DNA of 64,000 nt from Bacteroidaceae bacterium (GTDB taxonomy: Bacteria; Bacteroidota; Bacteroidia; Bacteroidales; Barnesiellaceae_A): the NCBI GenBank assembly GCA_017481745.1, contig JAFUOV010000012.1, forward strand, positions 28,181 through 92,180. Reading direction: 5' to 3'. Positions 8,463 to 55,455 of this stretch are shown here, in pieces. Under the pieces are notes generated by a model. The model ran no database searches. It had not been told where the DNA came from and saw only the letters and a program-made list of their open reading frames with translations. The position numbers were made by a program, and so were the translations under genes. Each line of letters starts with the position of its first letter. Position 1 is the stretch's first letter.

Positions 8463-8909
8463 TCAATCGAGCTTGCTGAATGTGTAGCGGTAGTCGTTGT
8501 ACTGCAAGACCATCTCGTTCCAATTTAGCTTTTCTACCACAAACAGCGGGGCTGTATCTTCAATGTGCAAAGACTCTAAAAATCTTAATAGCTGGGCTGT
8601 TTGGGCTTCGGTTGTAACCTCTTGCCCATAGTAATTGTATAAGTTGACTTTTATAGAGCCTTCTTGGTGAGTATACAACCCTGTTGCAGCTATTCTCTCG
8701 TATGTAAGGTAGTTTACTTTCTGTATCTGCATGACATCCGATTGAAAGGCAAAAAAGACGGTATCGCACTCCTCTACAACGTTGTCGTGGCAGATGTTTT
8801 CCAATCGCCATTGTCCAAACAAGTCGCCTATATAGCCATTATTCTGCAAGCAAGAACTTGTCATGCAAAGTATGATGATTGATGCAATAAAATATAAGGC
8901 TTGTTTCAT
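8463..8909 (-). CDS. Lipocalin-like domain lipoprotein
   Basis: 148 aa with a lipobox (ILCMTSSC) followed by GDLFGQWRLE, which is typical of Bacteroidetes lipocalin-like domains. Its ATG overlaps the upstream stop by 4 nt (ATGA). Confidence 0.5.
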   Translation of the reverse strand: MKQALYFIASIIILCMTSSCLQNNGYIGDLFGQWRLENICHDNVVEECDTVFFAFQSDVMQIQKVNYLTYERIAATGLYTHQEGSIKVNLYNYYGQEVTTEAQTAQLLRFLESLHIEDTAPLFVVEKLNWNEMVLQYNDYRYTFSKLD

Positions 8910-10459
8910 CGCTTATCTCCTTTCTTCTTGAAGTTAAAAAGAGTGCCGCTCTTCTTGACACTGAGGCTTATACCCACATTGTCGCCAATGAGATTGCCTG
9001 CATCTACTGCTACCGCACCGCAGAATTGCCATCCGGCAAGTTTCTGTGGTGCGTAAGTACATTCAATAAGCATTGAACCTTGGCGTTTATCTTCTTTTGC
9101 AGGGATAAATGGTGTGCCCCAAGCCTCGCGATACGATGCCATGATGCGGTATTGCCAGTTGGTGTTCATGTAGCCACGCAAGGCAATGTGTCCGCCGCGG
9201 ATGCGAGTGTTGAGGTAGCGCATATAGCCGTCGGTGTTATACATGATTGAGGGCGACATGGGTGTGCCTATGCCAAAGCCGGCTTGTTGCCAACCGTTGT
9301 AATAATAGTTGTTGTAGTAGTCGTCGCCGCCCGAGGTTTCGGTTGTAACCTGTGTGCCGGGGAAGTCGGTGGGCTGCCAAGGTATCGCACCGCTTTGGTT
9401 GTCAAGACCTATGTATTCGACGAGAATATCGGACACGATGCTACGTCGGTTGGTGTGGTAGGATATACCCCATAGCCCGTCAAATCCGTTCTGCTTGCCC
9501 ATGCCCGAGCCGTCTTCAAAGAGCCATTGCGTGTATACTCGCAGTTTCGATTGGTCTTTCAGCTTATATTCGGCAGCCATGTCGATAGCTCCCACGTGAT
9601 TGCCGTAGACAAAGAGTTGGTCGCCAACCGATGCAGTGTTGTCGCCACGACTTGGCAGGAATGCTTGCCAGAAGGCTTTCAGATTTACTTGTGGCTTGTA
9701 GCTTGCGGTGGCTACACCATCTTGATAGGTAGTGCGATTACCGCCAAACTGCACACCATCTTCTATACCGATTGTAAAGACGAAGCGTTGGTGGGGGTTG
9801 GTACGCAGATATAATGACTTGTAATGGTAAAACACATCGGTTGTGATAAACGACGAATAGTAGCCGTAATGGTTGCTCAAGTAGTCGTTACCCAAGAATT
9901 TTCCGTAGGCTATATCGCCCTTAATCTGCACCCAACCGCTTGTGAGGGGTATGTCGACAAACTTATGAAAGCCCACTTGTACCTGTGGCGAGGGGCGTGT
10001 ATTGCCCGAAAGGACAAGGTTGCCCGACGATAGGTCAAAGTTGGTAATAGGATTTTCGTCGGCTTTCTCGCGCATACCTACCGAGAGGAACACTGCACGA
10101 TACTTGATGTCGGCATATAGTTGTTGTATGCGGAATATTTGCGGGCGCACTTGCTTGGTGTTGAATGAGCCGTTTTCCCATTTTCGCACCGGCGATGTCG
10201 TTTCGTAATTGCCCATCAGCTCTATACCCGCGGCGTATGAAAACCGCTTGGTACTATCCATCTCGATGAATGCGCCGGCACGCAAGTATGCTCCACAACC
10301 ATTGGCTACAGTACCGTAGCGATTGGCGGTCATGTAGTATGGAGCGAAATCTCTCGGTGCTGCATGTGTAGCTATTTCGGCACTATACTTTACACCATCT
10401 TGTGCTGTTGCAGTGGTGAACGATAGTAGTGCGAGAAATAATAGTGCTATTTTCTTCAT
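8906..10459 (-). CDS. Large outer-membrane beta-barrel, capsule-assembly Wzi-like
   Basis: The ORF-track start at 10462 is TTG and the adjacent ATG is at 10457-10459. It has a signal peptide ending TATAQ, an N-terminal APYYMTANRYG...GAYLRAG pattern resembling Wzi family proteins, and is rich in Y/G/N beta strands. Confidence 0.45.
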   Translation of the reverse strand: MKKIALLFLALLSFTTATAQDGVKYSAEIATHAAPRDFAPYYMTANRYGTVANGCGAYLRAGAFIEMDSTKRFSYAAGIELMGNYETTSPVRKWENGSFNTKQVRPQIFRIQQLYADIKYRAVFLSVGMREKADENPITNFDLSSGNLVLSGNTRPSPQVQVGFHKFVDIPLTSGWVQIKGDIAYGKFLGNDYLSNHYGYYSSFITTDVFYHYKSLYLRTNPHQRFVFTIGIEDGVQFGGNRTTYQDGVATASYKPQVNLKAFWQAFLPSRGDNTASVGDQLFVYGNHVGAIDMAAEYKLKDQSKLRVYTQWLFEDGSGMGKQNGFDGLWGISYHTNRRSIVSDILVEYIGLDNQSGAIPWQPTDFPGTQVTTETSGGDDYYNNYYYNGWQQAGFGIGTPMSPSIMYNTDGYMRYLNTRIRGGHIALRGYMNTNWQYRIMASYREAWGTPFIPAKEDKRQGSMLIECTYAPQKLAGWQFCGAVAVDAGNLIGDNVGISLSVKKSGTLFNFKKKGDKR

Positions 10460-46622: not shown

Positions 46623-49556
46623 TTACTTGTATATGATAGATTTGACTTGTGCAAAAAAATCGTCGTTGGGATAGCCTTGCAATAGCACCTCACCATCGGG
46701 CGCAAAAAGTATGAGGTGCGGTATCTTTTCAATATTATATAATTTGGTGTGCGATTGTTGAGCATTGAGTATTTGGGGATAGGGCACTTGATACTGCTCA
46801 ATTATTTGGCGTGAGTCCTCGGGTTTATCCCATGAGGCAACGCCCAGCATATCCAGGCTCTTTGAGTGTCCACGATAGAAGTTGATGAGGTGGGGGATAG
46901 ATTTGAGGCAAGGACCACACCACGATGCCCAGAAGTCTACCAAAACATAACGACCATTGCCTACATAATCGCTCAGCGAAACTTTCGAGCCATCCTCTTG
47001 TGTTACGGTAAAGTCGGCAAATTTGGCATCTTTACTATTTATAATTTCTACTAACTCAATCTCGCAGACAAGCGGTGTGTTGGGAGGTATTACACCTCGT
47101 CCTTCGCTGCCATAGGCTTCTTTCGACGGGATATATACTTTCCACTTTGCTCCCTCTTTCATGTATAAGAGGGCTTCAGTCCAACCGGTTATTACATCTT
47201 CGAGACCAAATTTTGTGGGCTCACCGCCTTTGTTGCTGTCTATGACGTCGCCCTCTACGGTAGAAATGGTATAATAGCATCGTACCTTGTCATTGATATT
47301 GGGCTTGTCGCCTTTACCCTTTTTTATTACTTCATATTGAACACCGACAAGGCTTTTTACACCTTTTCGTTGCTCATTCTCGGCGAAAAAAGCTTCTTCA
47401 TCGAGTTGTAGGTATTTACGACTTGTCCATGCCTCATTGCCGTAGGCATTTGCATATTTTATTCGGGCAAAGTCGCCTTCTACCTCATACACATCAACAA
47501 CTTGGTTGTAGCTGATTGAGCCTACCTGCTCGGCAGATGTCGAGGGCGCTTTGCGCACTTTCATGCCCGACTTGGCGGTGCAAATGTATTTCATCGTTTG
47601 CGGCTCAACAATCTCGATTTTATCCTCAAACTTATCGCCTATGTCGCTCAGCAAGTTATGTCCAAATACCGAAATTATATCTGCTAAACCTATAATTGCT
47701 ACAATGAGGAAAGTCCATACATTATAGAATACAAAGCGAAGGATGTATAGAATTATCTTTGCGACAATATTAATACCTGCAAATATTAATCCCATTACAA
47801 AGAAGCCTATCACACCAAAAATCAGTGCAGCCCAGAAACCTTCGTTTACCCAGTAAGCTATGATGGCTATAACATAGAGTATGAAGATTATTAATGTGAT
47901 GATTGAGGTTACCGATTCGGGGTTATCTTTCCTCTCATCAAACCAGTAGCCTATATCCTCTATCTTGTTCTTAAATCGAGTCCATCCCGATTCGTTGCCA
48001 CTGGTGTTGCGTTGAGGTATTTTGCGGCTACCACCACCGCCTATTTTTACATTCTTGCTGCACAATACCTTGCCATTGTAGCGTATTGTACACTTGATAG
48101 TCTCCGATTCGGTATAGAACTTGCAGTCTTCTCTACCCCAGCCGTTCAAGTGATATTCGCCCGGACCTTGTATGAACACTTCGCAGTCGAAACGTGCACT
48201 TTTTCTATTTTCATATTGATACTCAACCTCAACTGTGATGTTGCCTCGGAAGTTGTTGTCGACAACAATCAAGGGGGTGAGGTATGGAATACCAGTGGGT
48301 ATGGGGTTGCCAAAGTTTACAACGATGTTGCCGTCTTTGTCGGTAGCAGCAAACTTGATGTCGGAAACATGAGGTGCTGTCGATTTTTTGGGGTCTTGTT
48401 GCAGGCTCACTCTGCCTTGCCACAACTTCTTGCCTCGGCATATAAATGTATAATCTACATATTGATAGGTCGAGTATGAAGTACCTGTCTTGCTACCCCA
48501 ACCGGCAATGGTATAGTTTCCTTTACCCTTAAACTCTATTTCGTCGTCATAGTTTACAGTTTCGCCATTCGGATAGCGCATTTTTATCTCAATGGTCTCT
48601 GTGCCATAATACTCGCTGGCAACAATAAGGCGCGGGGTGATATATTGGGTGTCGCTGTATAGTGTCTTACCAAAGTCTTTGATGATGTCGCCTTCGTAGC
48701 TGGTGTTGGCAAATACTACATCCGACAATATCAGCTCCTTGTCGCGCTTGATAGGTGTATGAGTCTCTTTCTTGGGTGTTTTGCGCTCTTCCTTGTGTGT
48801 GGGAATGGGCTCTTTCTTGGGAGGCTTATTCTCTTTGTAGTATTGAGTAATAGCCTTTTTGAATGCATCGAACGTCTCCTTGTTGTCATACACTTTACGT
48901 GCAACACCGCACAGATTTTTGCTCTGTTCTATGATTTCGCGGTTCGACGAGTGTAGCTTGTGAGAGTTTACAAGCACCTTTATCAGCTCGGCAGCCTCTT
49001 CCTTCATCTCGGGCTTGAACATCGGACGTCGCCACATGTCGGCAAGTTGTTCGATAGCTGTAAACTCGTTTGTCTCGAGTAGCGGAGTGATTTCTTCGCT
49101 GCGAAGGAATTGTATGGCTTTGCTCCACTTCTCTACATTCAGCATCATCAGCGCTTCGTTGTGCTGTGGTGTGGGAGTCGGCGTTGGTGTAGGCGTTGGT
49201 GTAGGTGTAGGAGTGGGTGTGGGTACTTTGCGATTGGGTGTCCAACCCATTTCGGTGCGGAACTCGTTGAATGTTTGAGCATCTTTGGTATAGAATGTTG
49301 CAGCTATACCTCTGAAGTTTTTGCTCTTCTCAATAATATCTCGGTTGGAAGAGTGCAGTTTGTCGCAGTTTTTGAGGGTGTTGATGTGAGCTTCGCAAGC
49401 AGCTTTGTTAAATTCGCTGTTTTGCCAAAATTCACAGAGGAATTTTATGGCTGCTTTTTCCTCGTCGGCAAGTTGTTTTACGATGTCGGGGCGTGCAAAG
49501 TATTCACACGCTTTATTCCATTCGGCTATTTTCTGTTTGAGAAGAGTTTTGTCCAT
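46623..49556 (-). CDS. 977-aa multidomain membrane protein. In order: 2 helical repeats, (PT)9 linker, 2 beta-rich repeats, TM cluster, SH3b, FKBP-type PPIase, TlpA-like thioredoxin
   Basis: I chose the ATG at 49554-49556 (MDKTLLKQK) because the ORF-track start lies inside the upstream hairpin. The FKBP pattern is GVQYEVIKKGKGDKP...VITGWTEALLYMKEGAKWKVYIPSKEAYG...IPPNTPLVCEIELVEI. The redoxin motif is VLVDFWASWCGPC (WCGPC is encoded at 46908-46922). The SH3b-like segment is MKVRKAPSTSAEQVGSISYNQVVDVYEVEGDFARIKY. Confidence 0.75.
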   Translation of the reverse strand: MDKTLLKQKIAEWNKACEYFARPDIVKQLADEEKAAIKFLCEFWQNSEFNKAACEAHINTLKNCDKLHSSNRDIIEKSKNFRGIAATFYTKDAQTFNEFRTEMGWTPNRKVPTPTPTPTPTPTPTPTPTPQHNEALMMLNVEKWSKAIQFLRSEEITPLLETNEFTAIEQLADMWRRPMFKPEMKEEAAELIKVLVNSHKLHSSNREIIEQSKNLCGVARKVYDNKETFDAFKKAITQYYKENKPPKKEPIPTHKEERKTPKKETHTPIKRDKELILSDVVFANTSYEGDIIKDFGKTLYSDTQYITPRLIVASEYYGTETIEIKMRYPNGETVNYDDEIEFKGKGNYTIAGWGSKTGTSYSTYQYVDYTFICRGKKLWQGRVSLQQDPKKSTAPHVSDIKFAATDKDGNIVVNFGNPIPTGIPYLTPLIVVDNNFRGNITVEVEYQYENRKSARFDCEVFIQGPGEYHLNGWGREDCKFYTESETIKCTIRYNGKVLCSKNVKIGGGGSRKIPQRNTSGNESGWTRFKNKIEDIGYWFDERKDNPESVTSIITLIIFILYVIAIIAYWVNEGFWAALIFGVIGFFVMGLIFAGINIVAKIILYILRFVFYNVWTFLIVAIIGLADIISVFGHNLLSDIGDKFEDKIEIVEPQTMKYICTAKSGMKVRKAPSTSAEQVGSISYNQVVDVYEVEGDFARIKYANAYGNEAWTSRKYLQLDEEAFFAENEQRKGVKSLVGVQYEVIKKGKGDKPNINDKVRCYYTISTVEGDVIDSNKGGEPTKFGLEDVITGWTEALLYMKEGAKWKVYIPSKEAYGSEGRGVIPPNTPLVCEIELVEIINSKDAKFADFTVTQEDGSKVSLSDYVGNGRYVLVDFWASWCGPCLKSIPHLINFYRGHSKSLDMLGVASWDKPEDSRQIIEQYQVPYPQILNAQQSHTKLYNIEKIPHLILFAPDGEVLLQGYPNDDFFAQVKSIIYK

Positions 49557-49572: not shown

Positions 49573-49599
49573 GAGGTTGTGTCGTAATGACACAACCTC
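49573..49599 (-). terminator. Intra-operon terminator/attenuator hairpin
   Basis: The minus strand reads gaggttgtgtc-attac-gacacaacctc followed by attttt. It lies between the Hsp70 stop (49636) and the next ATG (49556). Confidence 0.55.
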
Positions 49600-49635: not shown

Positions 49636-51234
49636 TTATACAGTTGCGTTGGCGATGAAGTCTTGCGATTTCTTCAACTCTTCTTCGTCTTTTACGCCGG
49701 CGATTTTGAGCTTGAAGTCTATCACGTCGCTTTCGCGTGTAGCATTAACGCTGAGGATACCCTCGTTGTCGATGCTGAATGTAACCTTGATTTCGGTACC
49801 TTTGGGGTGGTTGCCTGTAATTTTCAATACCGAAATATCCTCTGTTGCCAAGTTGCAGAAGCGGTCTTCTACTGTTTGATCCTTCTCTTCATCGGTAAAG
49901 TCGCTCTCGTAGATAGGCAGTAAAACACCTGTTTGTCCGTCTTGTACGGTTTCAAAAGAACGAGTGCGAGATACGGGAAGAGAAGAGTTGGCAAAGATAA
50001 GGTTACCTACCATGTCTTTATCCAAGCCGAGACCGTAAGTCTTACTTGTTACGTTCACGATGCGAGTGCGTTTTTGTCCGTCGGTGAGAGGTGCAGGTGC
50101 TTCGTCGATAGTACCTTCTTCCCAATCTTTTACTGCTTGAGCGTAAGCCTCATTCATGGCGTAGATGGCAGCACCCTTGGCAACGCACTCGTCGGGGTCG
50201 TTCAAGCGAGTAGGCAAGCCAAATTCGGCTTCTACGCGGTCTTTGATTTGGGGCATACGGCTACTACCACCCACGAGGATGATTTCGTCGATTGTATTGT
50301 AGCCTTTATCCTTGGCGATATCAATAATCTTGCGTGTAGCGTCGATAGTCTCGTTCAAACGGTCTTCTGTGATAGCGTTGAAAGTTTCGCGGGGAAGGTC
50401 GAAGTTGACCGACTTACCTTCGTATGAGAAGTTTACTTTGGCAGTTTGACGAGCCGAGAGGTTCTTTTTCCAGTTCTCGGCGCTGAGCAAGAGGTCGTAG
50501 CGAGCATTGGCGCTGAGAGAGTCGTATTCGTAAGCTGTGCCGTTTTGAGTGTTGAATGTGTTGAGTACATATTTAGCCAACTCGGTATCCCAATCGACAC
50601 CACCCAAGTGGTGGTCGCCACCGGTTGCTACTACCTTGATAGCACCACCGTTTACAACGATGATTGTTACGTCGAATGTACCACCACCAAGGTCGTATAC
50701 CAAGATAGTGCGACGCTCGTCGATCTTCATACCATATGATATGGCGGCTGCTGTGGGCTCGTTGATGATACCCAATACGTTAAGACCAGCACTGATACCG
50801 GCTTGTTTGGTTTGCAAGCGCTCTTTGTTACCAAAGTATGCGGGGCAAGTGATAACGACATCTTTGATAGGCTCGGGGTTGTCGCCCAAGTCGTTGGCAT
50901 CTTGAACAAGTTTTTTCAAGATAAGCGCCGATATCTCAACGGGGTCGCAGTGGTAGGGTGTGGTGTTTTTGCTCTTATCGAAAGCTTCGTCGTTACCAAT
51001 TTGACGTTTGATGAACGAAACAGTTTTTTCGGGCTCAACGGGAAGCATATTCTTTGCCTCTTTACCCACTATCATGTTGCTTTCCGATTCAAAGTATACT
51101 ACCGAAGGTGTTGTTGCATCACCTTCGAAGTTGCGAAGTACGACGGCTTGGTCGTATTTGTCTACTTGCGAGATACAGCTGTATGTTGTACCCAAGTCAA
51201 TGCCGTAAACGGCTCTGCTTTTGTCATTTGCCAT
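49636..51234 (-). CDS. Hsp70-family ATPase, short form lacking the C-terminal helical lid
   Basis: 532 aa with YGIDLGTTYS, VYDLGGGTFDV and ILVGGSSRMPQI, then a beta-sandwich-like region. The protein ends soon after, with no EEVD tail or lid. Confidence 0.85.
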   Translation of the reverse strand: MANDKSRAVYGIDLGTTYSCISQVDKYDQAVVLRNFEGDATTPSVVYFESESNMIVGKEAKNMLPVEPEKTVSFIKRQIGNDEAFDKSKNTTPYHCDPVEISALILKKLVQDANDLGDNPEPIKDVVITCPAYFGNKERLQTKQAGISAGLNVLGIINEPTAAAISYGMKIDERRTILVYDLGGGTFDVTIIVVNGGAIKVVATGGDHHLGGVDWDTELAKYVLNTFNTQNGTAYEYDSLSANARYDLLLSAENWKKNLSARQTAKVNFSYEGKSVNFDLPRETFNAITEDRLNETIDATRKIIDIAKDKGYNTIDEIILVGGSSRMPQIKDRVEAEFGLPTRLNDPDECVAKGAAIYAMNEAYAQAVKDWEEGTIDEAPAPLTDGQKRTRIVNVTSKTYGLGLDKDMVGNLIFANSSLPVSRTRSFETVQDGQTGVLLPIYESDFTDEEKDQTVEDRFCNLATEDISVLKITGNHPKGTEIKVTFSIDNEGILSVNATRESDVIDFKLKIAGVKDEEELKKSQDFIANATV

Positions 51235-51259: not shown

Positions 51260-52060
51260 TTATTCTTTCACAAGTTGATATTTGTAGCAAGCGATGCGTG
51301 CGGGGCGAAGTATTCTTTCTGTGTCCATGTCGCGGAAGCCGCCGTATATTACTTTTGCTATTTTCCTATCATGCGTTTCATCCCCTGTTGTGATGATTTC
51401 AAATGCTTGGTGTGCTTTGGGATTGAAATCGTCGCCTACAGCCGGTAGATAGTATTCTACACCAAAGTCGTTGTATATGCGGTTTTCCAATGCATCGACA
51501 GCGCTCTTGAATTGTGTCATCAAGTCGTTGTAGAGTTGTGTCATATCTGCCTCGCTGTTGTCGAGGTGGTCGAAGTGTGCGTAGGTCTCGAAGAAACGTT
51601 TGTGCAAGTCGAGCATTGCCATCAAATAGGGTTGGGTCAACTTGGCATAGAAGTTGCCGCGGAATTTCTCCAGCTCTTTGTGCATGGCTTTTACGTTCTC
51701 GTCTTGTACGTCGCGGTAGCCAATCAATACTTTCAACTCGTCCGACTTGGCTGTCAACTCCTTGATTGATGCGTTGATGGCTTCAAGCGCAGGAGCGTAG
51801 TCAACTGCTACAACGGGCGCTTCGGGTTGTGCCTCGGGCTCGGTAGGTTGCTCGGGAGTGGGAGTGGGCTCTGCAGTGGGGTCTTGAGGTACTGCTTGCG
51901 CCTTCAGAGCCTCAATGGTTTTCTTTAGATTGAGTATCTCTTCGTCTTTGGCTTTGTTATCTTGTACAAGCTTTTCGCACTCGGCTTTAATGTTCTCGAT
52001 GGTCTGTTCAAATGGAATTTTCTCATTTGAATCGTTCTCTTTTTTTGCAAAGATATTCAT
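51260..52060 (-). CDS. GrpE-like nucleotide-exchange factor
   Basis: It has an N-terminal coiled coil, a Pro/Thr/Glu-rich linker, then a GrpE-like C-terminus (GVEYYLPAVGDDFNPKAHQAFEII...VIYGGFRDMDTERILRPARIACYK). I preferred the ATG at 52060 because the -7 box at 52101-52108 would leave almost no leader for the ATG at 52090. Confidence 0.6.
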   Translation of the reverse strand: MNIFAKKENDSNEKIPFEQTIENIKAECEKLVQDNKAKDEEILNLKKTIEALKAQAVPQDPTAEPTPTPEQPTEPEAQPEAPVVAVDYAPALEAINASIKELTAKSDELKVLIGYRDVQDENVKAMHKELEKFRGNFYAKLTQPYLMAMLDLHKRFFETYAHFDHLDNSEADMTQLYNDLMTQFKSAVDALENRIYNDFGVEYYLPAVGDDFNPKAHQAFEIITTGDETHDRKIAKVIYGGFRDMDTERILRPARIACYKYQLVKE

Positions 52061-52100
52061 GATATAAGGTATTATGTGTTTATTTATCATCTTTACACCA

Positions 52101-52183: not shown

Positions 52184-52393
52184 TTACATTTTGTCTTTAA
52201 TGCATTCGCTGTAATGCTTAAAGAAGTCGTATTTCAAAATGATAGATATGCGCACAAGAACACTTGTGTCGATAGTAGCACGGTCAAATATCTTGTAGAC
52301 ATTGGTGCGGCTACACGGTAGTTGTCGGGCAAGCCACGATACTGTTACGCCCTGCTTTTCAACCTGCTGTCTGATGAGTTGTCCTATATGCAT
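52184..52393 (-). CDS. Small HTH (XRE-like) transcriptional regulator
   Basis: The 69-aa form from the internal ATG reads MHIGQLIRQQVEKQGVTVSWLARQLPCSRTNVYKIF, a helix-turn-helix pattern. It is divergent from the lysis-type cassette. Confidence 0.6.
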   Translation of the reverse strand: MHIGQLIRQQVEKQGVTVSWLARQLPCSRTNVYKIFDRATIDTSVLVRISIILKYDFFKHYSECIKDKM

Positions 52394-52738
52394 ACTATGA
52401 GGTGTTAAAACTATTATCAGTGTATTGCTTCTATCTTGTATACCGGGCAAGGTATGTTTAACGGGTTATGCTTTCTGACTGAAACAGGTGTTCTTGTATA
52501 TTATCTTTAAGTTAAAACTTCGCATTAATATCACAAAATTAGTATTTTAGGCTTTTCTTTAAACATTATAGGTGTATCCTAATAGTTTATATATAAACCA
52601 ATAGAGTACACATTGCATGTAAAACACACTGCCTCGCTGTGTGGTTTGCCTTCTTGGCTATTGGGGGCGGTTGTTTATCAATTCGTTTTATCGCATTAAA
52701 TTCTGTATGGCTGCTTGCATCTTTGCATCAAAAAAGTT

Positions 52739-52975
52739 ATGGCAGAAATAAATAGAATGACGGTGCAGTTGTGGGCGGCTTGCCTCATGTGCGTGGCAGG
52801 ACTGGTGCTCCTCTTTTCGGGCTTCTGGGTCGACCCGGAGGGCGAAATACATAGTAGTGTGCTGGTGGCTTTTGGCGAGGTGCTTACCTTCTCGGGAGCT
52901 TTGTTTGGTGTGGATTATAGTTATAGACGTTGCAATGGAGCTTCGCATGGCGAGAAAGGGGGTGCTGCCACATGA
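52739..52975 (+). CDS. Holin-like small membrane protein (2 TM)
   Basis: 78 aa from the internal ATG, with two hydrophobic helices (VQLWAACLMCVAGLVLLFSGFWV and SSVLVAFGEVLTFSGALFGV). Its stop overlaps the next ATG (ATGA). Confidence 0.5.
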   Translation: MAEINRMTVQLWAACLMCVAGLVLLFSGFWVDPEGEIHSSVLVAFGEVLTFSGALFGVDYSYRRCNGASHGEKGGAAT

Positions 52976-53379
52976 AATACTTTTCGATAGCCGAACTTAC
53001 GGATAGTGCGACAGCTCGGCAGTTGCATATAAACAATAAGCCCGATAATGAGGCTGTGGAGAACCTGAAAGCCCTCGTCGAGAATATTCTTGATCCGGCT
53101 CGTGAGCTGATGGGGGTGCCTGTGCGGGTGAATAGTGGTTATCGCTCGCCGAGGCTCAATCGTGTAGTTGGTGGTGTCGACAATAGTCAGCACATCAAAG
53201 GGGAGGCTGCCGATGTGAGCGCCGGCTCGCCCGAATTGAATAGGCGGTTGTACGAAGTGCTGCTTGATATGCCTTTTGACCAACTGATATGGGAACGTGG
53301 TAGCGACGAAGCGCCTGCTTGGCTGCATGTGAGTTACCGGCGTGATGGTGCAAACAGAGGGGAGGTCTTGCGCTTATGA
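52972..53379 (+). CDS. Peptidase M15-type D-alanyl-D-alanine carboxypeptidase-like metallohydrolase (endolysin-like)
   Basis: 135 aa with FSIAEL...NSGYRSPRLN...SQHIKGEAADV...WLHVS, which matches the zinc-ligand pattern of the M15 (Peptidase_M15_3-like) family. Confidence 0.7.
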   Translation: MKYFSIAELTDSATARQLHINNKPDNEAVENLKALVENILDPARELMGVPVRVNSGYRSPRLNRVVGGVDNSQHIKGEAADVSAGSPELNRRLYEVLLDMPFDQLIWERGSDEAPAWLHVSYRRDGANRGEVLRL

Positions 53380-53813
53380 AACAAATGGGTGTCTTTGCCG
53401 TTGTGATAATCTTTTCGCTCATAATGCTCTCTTGTGTGCGCAAGGTGTATGTGCCGGTTACTGCTCATCGCAGTGAGGTGGTTGTGGTGCGCGATACGGT
53501 GGTAGAGGTGGTAACTGCCGGCGAAATGTATAAAAACAGCACAACCGATACGGTGAGTGTGTTGAGCTGTGATAGGGCTTTTAGCATTGCTCAAATAGCA
53601 CAAGGTGTATTGTCGCATACTTTGTCTATACAGCCTCGGCGCGATAGTGTCGTGCTGCGGTGGCGCGAAGTACATACAACCGATTCTGTGCCATATCTTG
53701 TGCCGGTGCCGGGCGAGAGGGTAGAGGTAATACCCTCATGGATGTGGTGTGTAACAGGGGTGTTGTTAATCATGGTTTTATCTCTGCTGTTGTTGTATCG
53801 GTGGCGCGTGTAA
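53376..53813 (+). CDS. Unimolecular-spanin-like protein (N-terminal lipobox + C-terminal TM)
   Basis: 145 aa with a lipobox (LIMLSC) and a C-terminal TM (WMWCVTGVLLIMVLSLLLLY). Its start overlaps the previous stop (ATGA). Confidence 0.5.
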   Translation: MKQMGVFAVVIIFSLIMLSCVRKVYVPVTAHRSEVVVVRDTVVEVVTAGEMYKNSTTDTVSVLSCDRAFSIAQIAQGVLSHTLSIQPRRDSVVLRWREVHTTDSVPYLVPVPGERVEVIPSWMWCVTGVLLIMVLSLLLLYRWRV

Positions 53814-55372: not shown

Positions 55373-55455
55373 GGGCTAATACCATAGTGGCAAAATGGTG
55401 CAGAATGTAAATCTGCTGGTTTTTACCTTCGGTGGTTCGAATCCATCTTCGCCCA
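55373..55455 (+). tRNA. tRNA-Tyr (anticodon GTA), class II with long variable arm
   Basis: I folded it by hand. The acceptor is GGGCTAA/TTCGCCC (one T5:C68 mismatch), the D arm is CCA-TAGTGGCAAAA-TGG, and the anticodon stem GCAGA/TCTGC carries the loop ATGTAAA. There is a 14-nt variable arm, the T arm is GGTGG-TTCGAAT-CCATC, and the discriminator is A. No CCA is encoded. It is colinear with the E. coli tRNA-Tyr layout. Confidence 0.75.

Follow-up and report, generated by a model that had tools for sequence, protein, structure and literature searches.

A candidate membrane-anchored non-J partner of a specialised Hsp70 with exchangeable C-terminal modules in Bacteroidales

Introduction

A membrane protein that docks an Hsp70 near a site of translocation or folding is found in Tim44/Pam18-Pam16, which function with mtHsp70 and the GrpE-type exchange factor Mge1, and in Sec63, which functions with BiP. 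To our knowledge, all Hsp70s characterised so far are driven by J-domain partners. The J-domain contacts on DnaK are R167, Q378, L391, P419, and D477, and class C J-domain proteins have been described as one conserved adaptor domain fused to many modules (PMC8215388). Prokaryotic DnaK derivatives that lack DnaJ-binding features and are of unknown function were noted in a 2026 review, and in the GAP1-N2 GTPase conflict systems Hsp70/GrpE are encoded beside proteins in which FnIII-like repeats are joined to a cofactor domain for Hsp70 (Kaur et al., eLife 2020). Among the known systems, HscC-DjlB/DjlC of Escherichia coli (ybeS-ybeV-hscC) is the closest to the operon that is the subject of this work. 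This operon is located in a stretch of 64,000 nucleotides, referred to as the window, from a Bacteroidaceae bacterium (assembly GCA_017481745.1, contig JAFUOV010000012.1, positions 28,181 to 92,180); all coordinates below are positions in the window. It encodes, on the minus strand, a GrpE-like protein, a specialised Hsp70 paralogue, and a multi-domain inner-membrane protein of 977 amino acids, here termed X (46623..49556, stop codon included).

The reading that we favour, and in which we place even confidence, is that X is a membrane-anchored non-J partner of the operon's Hsp70 that carries exchangeable periplasmic modules. An earlier note, made from the sequence of the window alone, had described X as a single polypeptide linking cytoplasmic repeats to periplasmic foldase domains, and its author had recognised no named family. 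Indeed, Pfam and NCBIfam recognise just three domains of X, all C-terminal, and the NCBI names of X orthologues are either "FKBP-type peptidyl-prolyl cis-trans isomerase" or "hypothetical". Among 5.8 billion proteins searched, 32 were members of the X family, and none of them bears a family-level name. With GTDB sampled at one genome per species, the close family was confined to about 18 uncultured Bacteroidales of animal guts. The literature search identified no paper on the operon or on its helical domain, and the nearest match was the Hsp70-GrpE theme in the study of Kaur et al. 2020.

The N-terminal helical domain

X starts with two copies of a helical domain, namely, copy 1 at residues 1-107 (49236..49556) and copy 2 at residues 131-241 (48834..49166), that share 34% identity in a BLASTP comparison (E=2e-17). 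An AlphaFold2 model of residues 1-250, with a predicted local distance difference test (pLDDT) score of ~90 in both domains, shows a five-helix bundle for copy 1 (helices 3-21, 31-46, 51-68, 72-89, and 93-102) and corresponding helices for copy 2 (130-151, 162-174, 183-202, 206-222, and 226-242). The two repeats of about 100 residues described in the earlier note are thus real, but the KLHSSNR motif that was thought to end each of them is located about two-thirds along the repeat, in a tight turn between helices 3 and 4. According to the model of copy 1 and to sequence conservation, the invariant His68 closes helix 3, and N71-R72 open helix 4. The conserved turn reads H-S-S-N-R in X, has the consensus H-x-N-N-R, and does not contain Pro-Asp. 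It forms part of a domain signature, kW...E..A...L...W...H.NNR...K.FR...YT.D..F, that recurs across the profile matches.

A profile search of 1.84 billion representative sequences placed the helical domain in about 150 clusters (at 50% identity), 84 of them with E-values below 1e-10. The domain is almost always N-terminal, is present in one or two copies, and is fused to a wide range of partners, comprising SH3_3, MORN, TonB_C, Sel1, Big_2, YARHG, CD225, DUF805, a rhomboid protease, FKBP, and a kinase. At least one transmembrane (TM) segment is located C-terminal to the domain in nearly all of these proteins. As judged by this distribution, the N-terminal domain of about 105 residues, which had been considered a mere repeat, is the conserved, family-defining part of X, rather than the foldase pair on which the earlier note had laid its emphasis.

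The domain had no match in Pfam or NCBIfam, and Pfam was blank over residues 1-660 of X. A Foldseek comparison of a model with a pLDDT of 83 to the PDB and BFVD produced no match with an E-value below 0.1 and no J-domain, and profile searches against PDB sequences (A2, A8) for a known fold returned only chance-level matches to RbcS (E=0.069) and ColG (E=0.0045) of ~45-60 residues each. A divergent J-domain was also considered and rejected. No DnaJ model matched X at E<=0.1 in Pfam or NCBIfam, an hhalign comparison of the domain profile to an alignment of J-domain sequences gave a probability of 0.3%, and there is no HPD motif. By J-domain, HPD motif, and fold X is therefore not a J-domain protein, but it may still work like one.

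A class C-like build, with an N-terminal adaptor, many different modules, and a dedicated Hsp70 encoded adjacently, leads us to infer by analogy that the helical domain would be the docking partner, and possibly an activator, of this Hsp70. Among the proteins in which the domain has an internal or unusual position, no fusion of the Rosetta-stone type to Hsp70 or GrpE was identified; kinase, Sel1, and rhomboid fusions were found instead.

The Hsp70 subfamily

The Hsp70 of the window (49636..51234; 532 residues) matched the Pfam HSP70 family with an E-value of 5.6e-104, whereas its scores were well below the cut-offs of the NCBIfam models for DnaK (331 bits vs 648) and HscA (317 vs 709). The nucleotide-binding domain is intact, the beta part of the substrate-binding domain contains an insertion, and the lid is almost absent, the protein ending shortly after the first lid helices. 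The subfamily, which belongs to the Bacteroidota, is large, with more than 1,700 clusters at 90% identity in our search. Residues were surveyed in 120 of its members, using the numbering of E. coli DnaK, which agrees with the residues named in PMC8215388.

The catalytic residues D8, K70, E171, T199, and D201 were invariant in this survey. R167 was replaced by Ala, Gly, or Ser, and Q378 by Tyr or Phe, in all 120 proteins. In addition, E217 is Lys or Arg in the subfamily, D393 is Asn, D326 is Ile, and residues 209-211 are deleted. On the basis of this alignment, the subfamily has replaced residues contacted by J-domains (R167, Q378, and the acidic patch) in 120/120 members. Pfam and NCBIfam detected no J-domain protein among the products of the window operon and no J-domain within X. 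A more far-reaching proposal, which we advance only tentatively, is that the helical domain is a non-J co-chaperone that docks on and triggers this Hsp70 devoid of the J interface; the operon would then represent the first J-domain-independent Hsp70 system.

Conservation of the operon

On the minus strand of the window, the genes follow each other in the order GrpE-like, Hsp70, and X, with gaps of 25 bp and 79 bp. The open reading frame (ORF) of the GrpE-like gene (51260..52090) has 276 codons, and residues 103-266 of its product match Pfam GrpE (E=4.3e-10); in four other assemblies (L035-L038) the protein starts at Met11, giving 266 residues (51260-52060). The same order of GrpE-like gene, Hsp70 gene, and helical-domain gene was observed in 20/20 loci (L001-L020) that span Bacteroidaceae, Barnesiella, Alistipes, Rikenellaceae, and Butyricimonas. 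Across these loci the identity is 82-96% for Hsp70 (62% in the Butyricimonas locus), 42-70% for X, and 41-78% for the GrpE-like protein. In two loci, a soluble paralogue with one helical and four beta domains is encoded between Hsp70 and X.

This order is maintained in the distant loci L022, L024-L031, and L039. Distant family members that carry MORN (L022), TonB_C (L024), or rhomboid-Sel1 modules (L039) are encoded directly downstream of an Hsp70 of 524-532 residues, and the same was seen for the helical-domain gene in the 7 metagenomic loci of a narrower alignment. The GrpE-like gene, counted only at loci for which enough upstream sequence was recovered, precedes Hsp70 at every one of them. 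When the search was started from the Hsp70 side, 3/3 sampled homologues with 58-67% identity (from Marinifilum, Prevotella, and a third contig) were found to have a downstream helical-domain gene, which is adjacent in two cases. The link of X to the neighbouring Hsp70, as suggested in the earlier note, is consequently borne out by a strongly conserved gene order.

In the Prevotella locus (L033), the helical-domain gene follows a second copy of the Hsp70 gene. This tandem copy (8609-10206 of the locus) is split into pieces of 104 and 428 amino acids, reflecting a frameshift or a sequencing error, and the locus adjoins mobile-element-like genes (VapE-like, helicase). In another locus (L040:2949-4865), the helical domain is internal (residues 375-472) to a Ser/Thr kinase encoded in a vWA-PP2C-kinase operon; no Hsp70 was detected within the ~3 kb upstream and 5 kb downstream covered at this locus.

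A terminator-like hairpin (49573..49599, minus strand), identified in a consensus scan, lies 17 nt upstream of the ATG of X and consists of an 11-bp stem (GAGGTTGTGTC/GACACAACCTC) followed by ATTTTT. The same stem sequence is present in 12 related loci, and two further loci have different hairpins with a T-run. The hairpin probably acts as an attenuator and thereby adjusts the ratio of Hsp70 to X. In three loci of the Alistipes/Rikenellaceae type, the spacers downstream of Hsp70 (L002:5446-5716, L011:7801-8021, and L017:7737-8000) are 220-270 nt long and form very stable structures, with folding energies of -73 to -99 kcal/mol; none of these structured spacers matched an Rfam family.

In an alternative reading, X would be a dedicated client of the Hsp70. 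The helical domain would then be a recognition tag, and Hsp70 and the GrpE-like protein would keep a protein that has no signal peptide and late TM segments competent for insertion and pass it to the insertion machinery. One Hsp70 is paired with one or two such proteins per operon, the TM segment or segments of family members are far from the N-terminus, and many members are essentially tail-anchored (P0098, P0100, P0106, P0134, P0139, and P0173). The DnaK-guided insertion of the tail-anchored DjlC provides a precedent (PMC8215388). However, Hsp70 clients are usually short hydrophobic peptides and not a folded domain of 105 residues with an invariant polar turn. Furthermore, a client-specific Hsp70 would need an ATPase trigger, and no other candidate is encoded nearby. 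The soluble paralogue P0028 possesses the helical domain but no TM segment. We consider a client role unlikely, although it is the least improbable of the alternatives.

Membrane block and topology

In the partner role that we favour for X, its N- and C-terminal parts would be on different sides of the inner membrane. X has no signal peptide, as stated in the earlier note: the maximal Kyte-Doolittle score of a 19-residue segment within the first 60 residues is 0.27. Its hydrophobic block spans 85 residues (547-631; 47664..47918) and can be read as TM1, a W-x-x-E-G-F turn, TM2, a basic amphipathic connector (595-611), and TM3 (613-631), with the signature W-x-x-[ED]-G-F-W-x-A across relatives. 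It is preceded by an amphipathic pre-membrane helix (residues 524-542; 47931..47987; residues 260-278 of the AlphaFold2 model) that has a hydrophobic moment of 0.42 and contains W525 and G536, both conserved in the homologue alignment. In the AlphaFold2 model of residues 265-725 (pLDDT 83.5), two beta-sandwiches are followed by this amphipathic helix, four helices (547-572, 574-593, 595-611, and 613-642), and an SH3 barrel.

The topology that we regard as likely has three passes, the N-terminus lying inside and the C-terminus outside. It is favoured by the basic connectors in homologous blocks, the order of segments in single-TM relatives, and a TonB_C domain in P0019. The segments equivalent to helix 3 in P0054, P0092, and P0104 are basic (KWFGRLSRWLK, LNLSRKTK, or NRMPRWLK) and cannot span the membrane. 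Among 24 close homologues, the connector contains on average 1.58 Lys and Arg and 0.00 Asp and Glu per protein, and loop 1 contains 0.04 and 1.25, respectively. Single-TM relatives maintain the order of a poly-Lys/Arg stretch, TM segment, SH3b, and then FKBP or TonB_C. P0019 has the same membrane block as X, followed by SH3b and a C-terminal TonB_C, which is a periplasmic domain.

The odd number of passes envisaged in the earlier note is in this way favoured but not proven. AlphaFold2 shows four helices, which taken alone would place the C-terminus inside. If all four spanned the membrane, the SH3b, FKBP, and thioredoxin domains would be cytoplasmic and X would be a membrane-attached cytoplasmic chaperone scaffold. 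The modelled helices of 26, 20, 17, and 30 residues are separated by single-residue breaks, the Lys and Arg counts of the X sequence alone do not clearly separate three from four passes, and both cytoplasmic FKBPs (FklB, SlyD) and cytoplasmic WCGPC thioredoxins exist. On the other hand, helix 3 aligns with the non-spanning basic connectors of relatives, and its hydrophobic moment exceeds those of the other three helices (0.53 vs 0.07-0.26). Also contrary to four passes, the N-terminus of single-TM relatives is separated by the membrane from SH3b, FKBP, and TonB_C, and in P0019 TonB_C follows the very same block. Four passes are judged improbable.

Exchangeable C-terminal modules and beta-sandwiches

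Downstream of the membrane block, the SH3b, FKBP, and WCGPC-containing TlpA/redoxin domains named in the earlier note were all identified with scores above the Pfam gathering thresholds. The SH3b domain (residues 663-717; 47406..47570) matched SH3_3 (PF08239; 37.4 bits vs a cut-off of 27) and was modelled as a small beta barrel. The FKBP-type peptidyl-prolyl cis-trans isomerase domain (residues 751-836; 47049..47306) matched FKBP_C (PF00254; E=1.9e-20; 73.4 bits vs 21.1), and the TlpA/ResA-like thioredoxin-fold domain (residues 844-963; 46668..47027) matched AhpC-TSA (E=8.5e-17), Redoxin, and Thioredoxin_8. The latter domain contains WCGPC at residues 879-883 and a candidate cis-Pro loop, with Pro present in EKIPHLILF.

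The NCBIfam models nearest to the FKBP domain are FklB, BamJ (E=7.5e-24), FkpA, and GldI, each of them below its cut-off. The thioredoxin domain scored highest with ResA (62.7 bits vs 170; E=3.9e-17), followed by StoA (45.7 vs 210), TlpA (33 vs 230), and DsbE (26.2 vs 123), and it does not belong to any of these four families at the equivalog level. The FKBP pocket was compared by eye with FKBP12 and FkpA sequences at the FKBP12 positions Y26, D37, F46, V55, I56, W59, Y82, and F99. As seen in this comparison, X retains Y, D, F, V, I, W, and Y; it has Ile at the position of F36 and Cys at that of F99, where homologues have Phe.

The family members share residues 1 to ~720, comprising the two helical domains, PT linker, two beta domains, membrane block, and SH3b. 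The FKBP and thioredoxin domains after SH3b are present in X and four other members. In other close relatives SH3b is followed by FKBP only, thioredoxin only, nothing, or TonB_C (P0019), and a further copy of the beta domain is found in P0020, P0022, and P0032. The variation of the C-terminus among close relatives indicates that the foldase pair is an exchangeable accessory. In the full-length orthologues P0002 and P0004, the first Cys of the CxxC motif is lost, with WAGPC or WAAPC in place of the WCGPC of X, and the nucleophilic Cys thus appears to be dispensable in part of the family. Both observations detract from the weight that the earlier note had given to the combined presence of FKBP and thioredoxin.

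On the N-terminal side of the membrane block, the linkers and beta-rich repeats of X correspond to those described in that note. The (PT)9 linker between the helical domains is an exact run (residues 112-129; 49170..49223) with a pLDDT below 50, and a Lys/Pro-rich spacer, variable among aligned homologues, covers residues 242-275 (48732..48833). The PT linker differs in length among assemblies of the same species, being (PT)9 in the window and (PT)7 in L036. The two beta-rich repeats with GWG motifs (sandwich 1, residues 276-387, 48396..48731; sandwich 2, residues 396-506, 48039..48371) share 29% identity (BLASTP, E=2e-20) and were modelled as Ig/FnIII-like beta-sandwiches, with an all-beta model and a pLDDT of ~90 for the first. 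Searches for informative homology returned only generic tandem Ig/FnIII-like matches; Foldseek aligned them with RbmA (E=3e-7), C-terminal barrels of transglutaminases, and NF-kB p52. Beta-sandwiches of the GWG type are also found C-terminal to SH3b, on the presumed periplasmic side, in P0020, P0022, P0032, and P0033.

The rapid turnover of C-terminal modules among close relatives could also be interpreted in terms of a sensing or conflict module, in which the variable domain outside the cytoplasm would detect an invader or an envelope cue and Hsp70 and GrpE would gate a conformational or oligomeric switch in the cytoplasm, by analogy with the GTPase-centred conflict systems. Hsp70 and GrpE have been reported beside FnIII-repeat proteins fused to DnaJ or TPR (Kaur et al. 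2020), one relative is encoded in the vWA-PP2C-kinase operon, and mobile-element genes are located next to the Prevotella locus. However, Pfam identified neither a GTPase nor an effector or toxin domain among the products of the window operon, which is part of a chromosomal locus that is syntenic among housekeeping genes across genera. A known anti-phage system was not recovered either, as the only PADLOC match for the three operon proteins was a marginal one of the GrpE-like protein to LmuB (E=0.0014). Such a role therefore seems slightly less probable still than four passes.

Integrity and start of gene X

X is one intact gene and not an assembly artefact. Its ATG-initiated product of 977 residues is identical in two independent ENA assemblies (L035 and L037), differs by one residue in a third (L038), and has (PT)7 and four substitutions in a fourth (L036). 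The full-length architecture is kept in four homologues with 60-68% identity (P0001, P0002, P0004, and P0005), and the domain order is constant in homologues with 42-70% identity from ~20 genomes. The single polypeptide of the earlier note, which had named a frameshift or an assembly error as what would undo it, is hence an intact ORF in independent assemblies. The PT and Lys/Pro-rich low-complexity linkers could in principle hide a junction, but nothing was found to suggest a chimera of the assembly or two genes joined by read-through, and the identical ORF in independent assemblies leaves such an artefact with next to no probability. As to the start codon, an in-frame TTG at 49595, upstream of the ATG, would add 13 residues; it falls within the terminator-like hairpin, and the alignment shows that all homologues start with MDKTLL, so that the ATG is taken as the start of X.

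Proposed mode of action

The partner role proposed for X can be summarised in the following tentative model. The helical domain, present in two copies, would couple X to the operon's own Hsp70 and fill the role of a J-domain, that is, Hsp70 docking and possibly the triggering of its ATPase, and the GrpE-like protein would reset and recycle the Hsp70. The two Ig-like beta-sandwiches would lie in the cytoplasm. The three-pass block, with TM1, the E-G-F turn, TM2, the connector on the cytoplasmic face, and TM3, would bring the SH3b, FKBP, and TlpA-like thioredoxin domains to the periplasmic side. In this manner, X would tether an ATP-driven chaperone to the inner membrane face and display ATP-independent wall-binding and folding modules outside, with the periplasmic module being swapped between relatives. 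Our best guess for the cellular process is envelope protein biogenesis or quality control.

Several observations weigh against this model. The helical domain resembles J-domains neither by sequence profile nor by fold, and the J-like role proposed for it is accordingly based on position, conservation, and context. A terminator-like hairpin stands between the Hsp70 gene and X, and the kinase of L040 is the sole exception to Hsp70 adjacency. With four AlphaFold2 helices in the block and a connector that is fairly hydrophobic in the window protein, four passes are possible. Finally, some relatives have beta-sandwiches of the same type on either side of the membrane, which makes a strictly cytoplasmic client-binding role for the sandwiches look odd.

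If the model is correct, X forms a link across the inner membrane between ATP-driven chaperoning in the cytoplasm and modules in the periplasm (SH3b, FKBP, thioredoxin, and TonB_C). X is the most elaborate member of its family and suggests a route by which cytoplasmic ATP might be linked to envelope proteostasis in abundant gut bacteria. The set of Hsp70, GrpE-like protein, and novel-domain protein is a testable candidate for a J-independent Hsp70 cycle, and the operon offers a way to approach those DnaK derivatives whose function recent reviews have listed as unknown.

Neighbouring features

Divergent from the operon, at 52715-53813 on the plus strand, is a phage-lysis-like trio that encodes a small TM protein, a Peptidase_M15_3 protein, and a 145-residue protein with hydrophobic ends. 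Bacteroidaceae and Barnesiella loci, unlike those of Alistipes, have kept the genes of the Peptidase_M15_3 protein and the 145-residue protein, together with an adjacent TPR gene, beside the operon. A small ORF of 69-88 codons (52184-52393, minus strand), which looks helix-turn-helix-like by eye, is located directly upstream of the GrpE-like gene and was detectable only in the closest relatives (L018, L035, and L036); it could encode a local regulator. A tRNA gene is present at 55373-55455 on the plus strand (Rfam RF00005, 46 bits).

Comparison with known systems

The similarity to HscC-DjlB/DjlC concerns both partners. Like the Hsp70 of the window, HscC is a specialised paralogue whose lid is shortened and whose J-domain binding loop has a small deletion near D211, and the partner encoded beside it is membrane-anchored and presumed to guide the Hsp70 to the membrane (PMC8215388). 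However, DjlB and DjlC carry canonical HPD J-domains and X carries none; HscC works without GrpE, whereas a GrpE-like gene is always present in the X operon; and, in comparison to HscC, the window Hsp70 is devoid of R167 and Q378. In addition, X is predicted to span the membrane with periplasmic domains, which DjlB and DjlC do not possess. A similar relation exists with DjlA, which recruits Hsp70 to the membrane and is, like X, an inner-membrane protein with a dedicated cytoplasmic domain. DjlA has an N-terminal TM segment and a C-terminal J-domain, uses the housekeeping DnaK, and has no periplasmic enzyme domains, whereas X combines an N-terminal non-J domain and C-terminal, presumably periplasmic modules with an Hsp70 of its own.

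The GAP1-N2 systems share with the X operon the Hsp70 and GrpE proteins, beta-sandwich repeats, and associations with membrane and SH3b domains. They are nevertheless centred on a GTPase, occur in Actinobacteria and Firmicutes, and contain a true DnaJ domain or TPRs, whereas the X operon has no GTPase and has a novel helical domain in the place of the cofactor. The mitochondrial and endoplasmic reticulum adaptors serve as an analogy only; they employ J or J-like domains at the translocon, and X has no J-domain. At the level of domains, the C-terminus of X corresponds to FKBP-type isomerases (FkpA/Mip, BamJ, and GldI) and TlpA/ResA oxidoreductases, but the known periplasmic FKBPs and TlpA-ResA proteins are secreted proteins or lipoproteins with signal peptides and not appendages of an Hsp70-linked polytopic protein. 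In its fusion pattern, the helical-domain family corresponds to the class C J-domain proteins.

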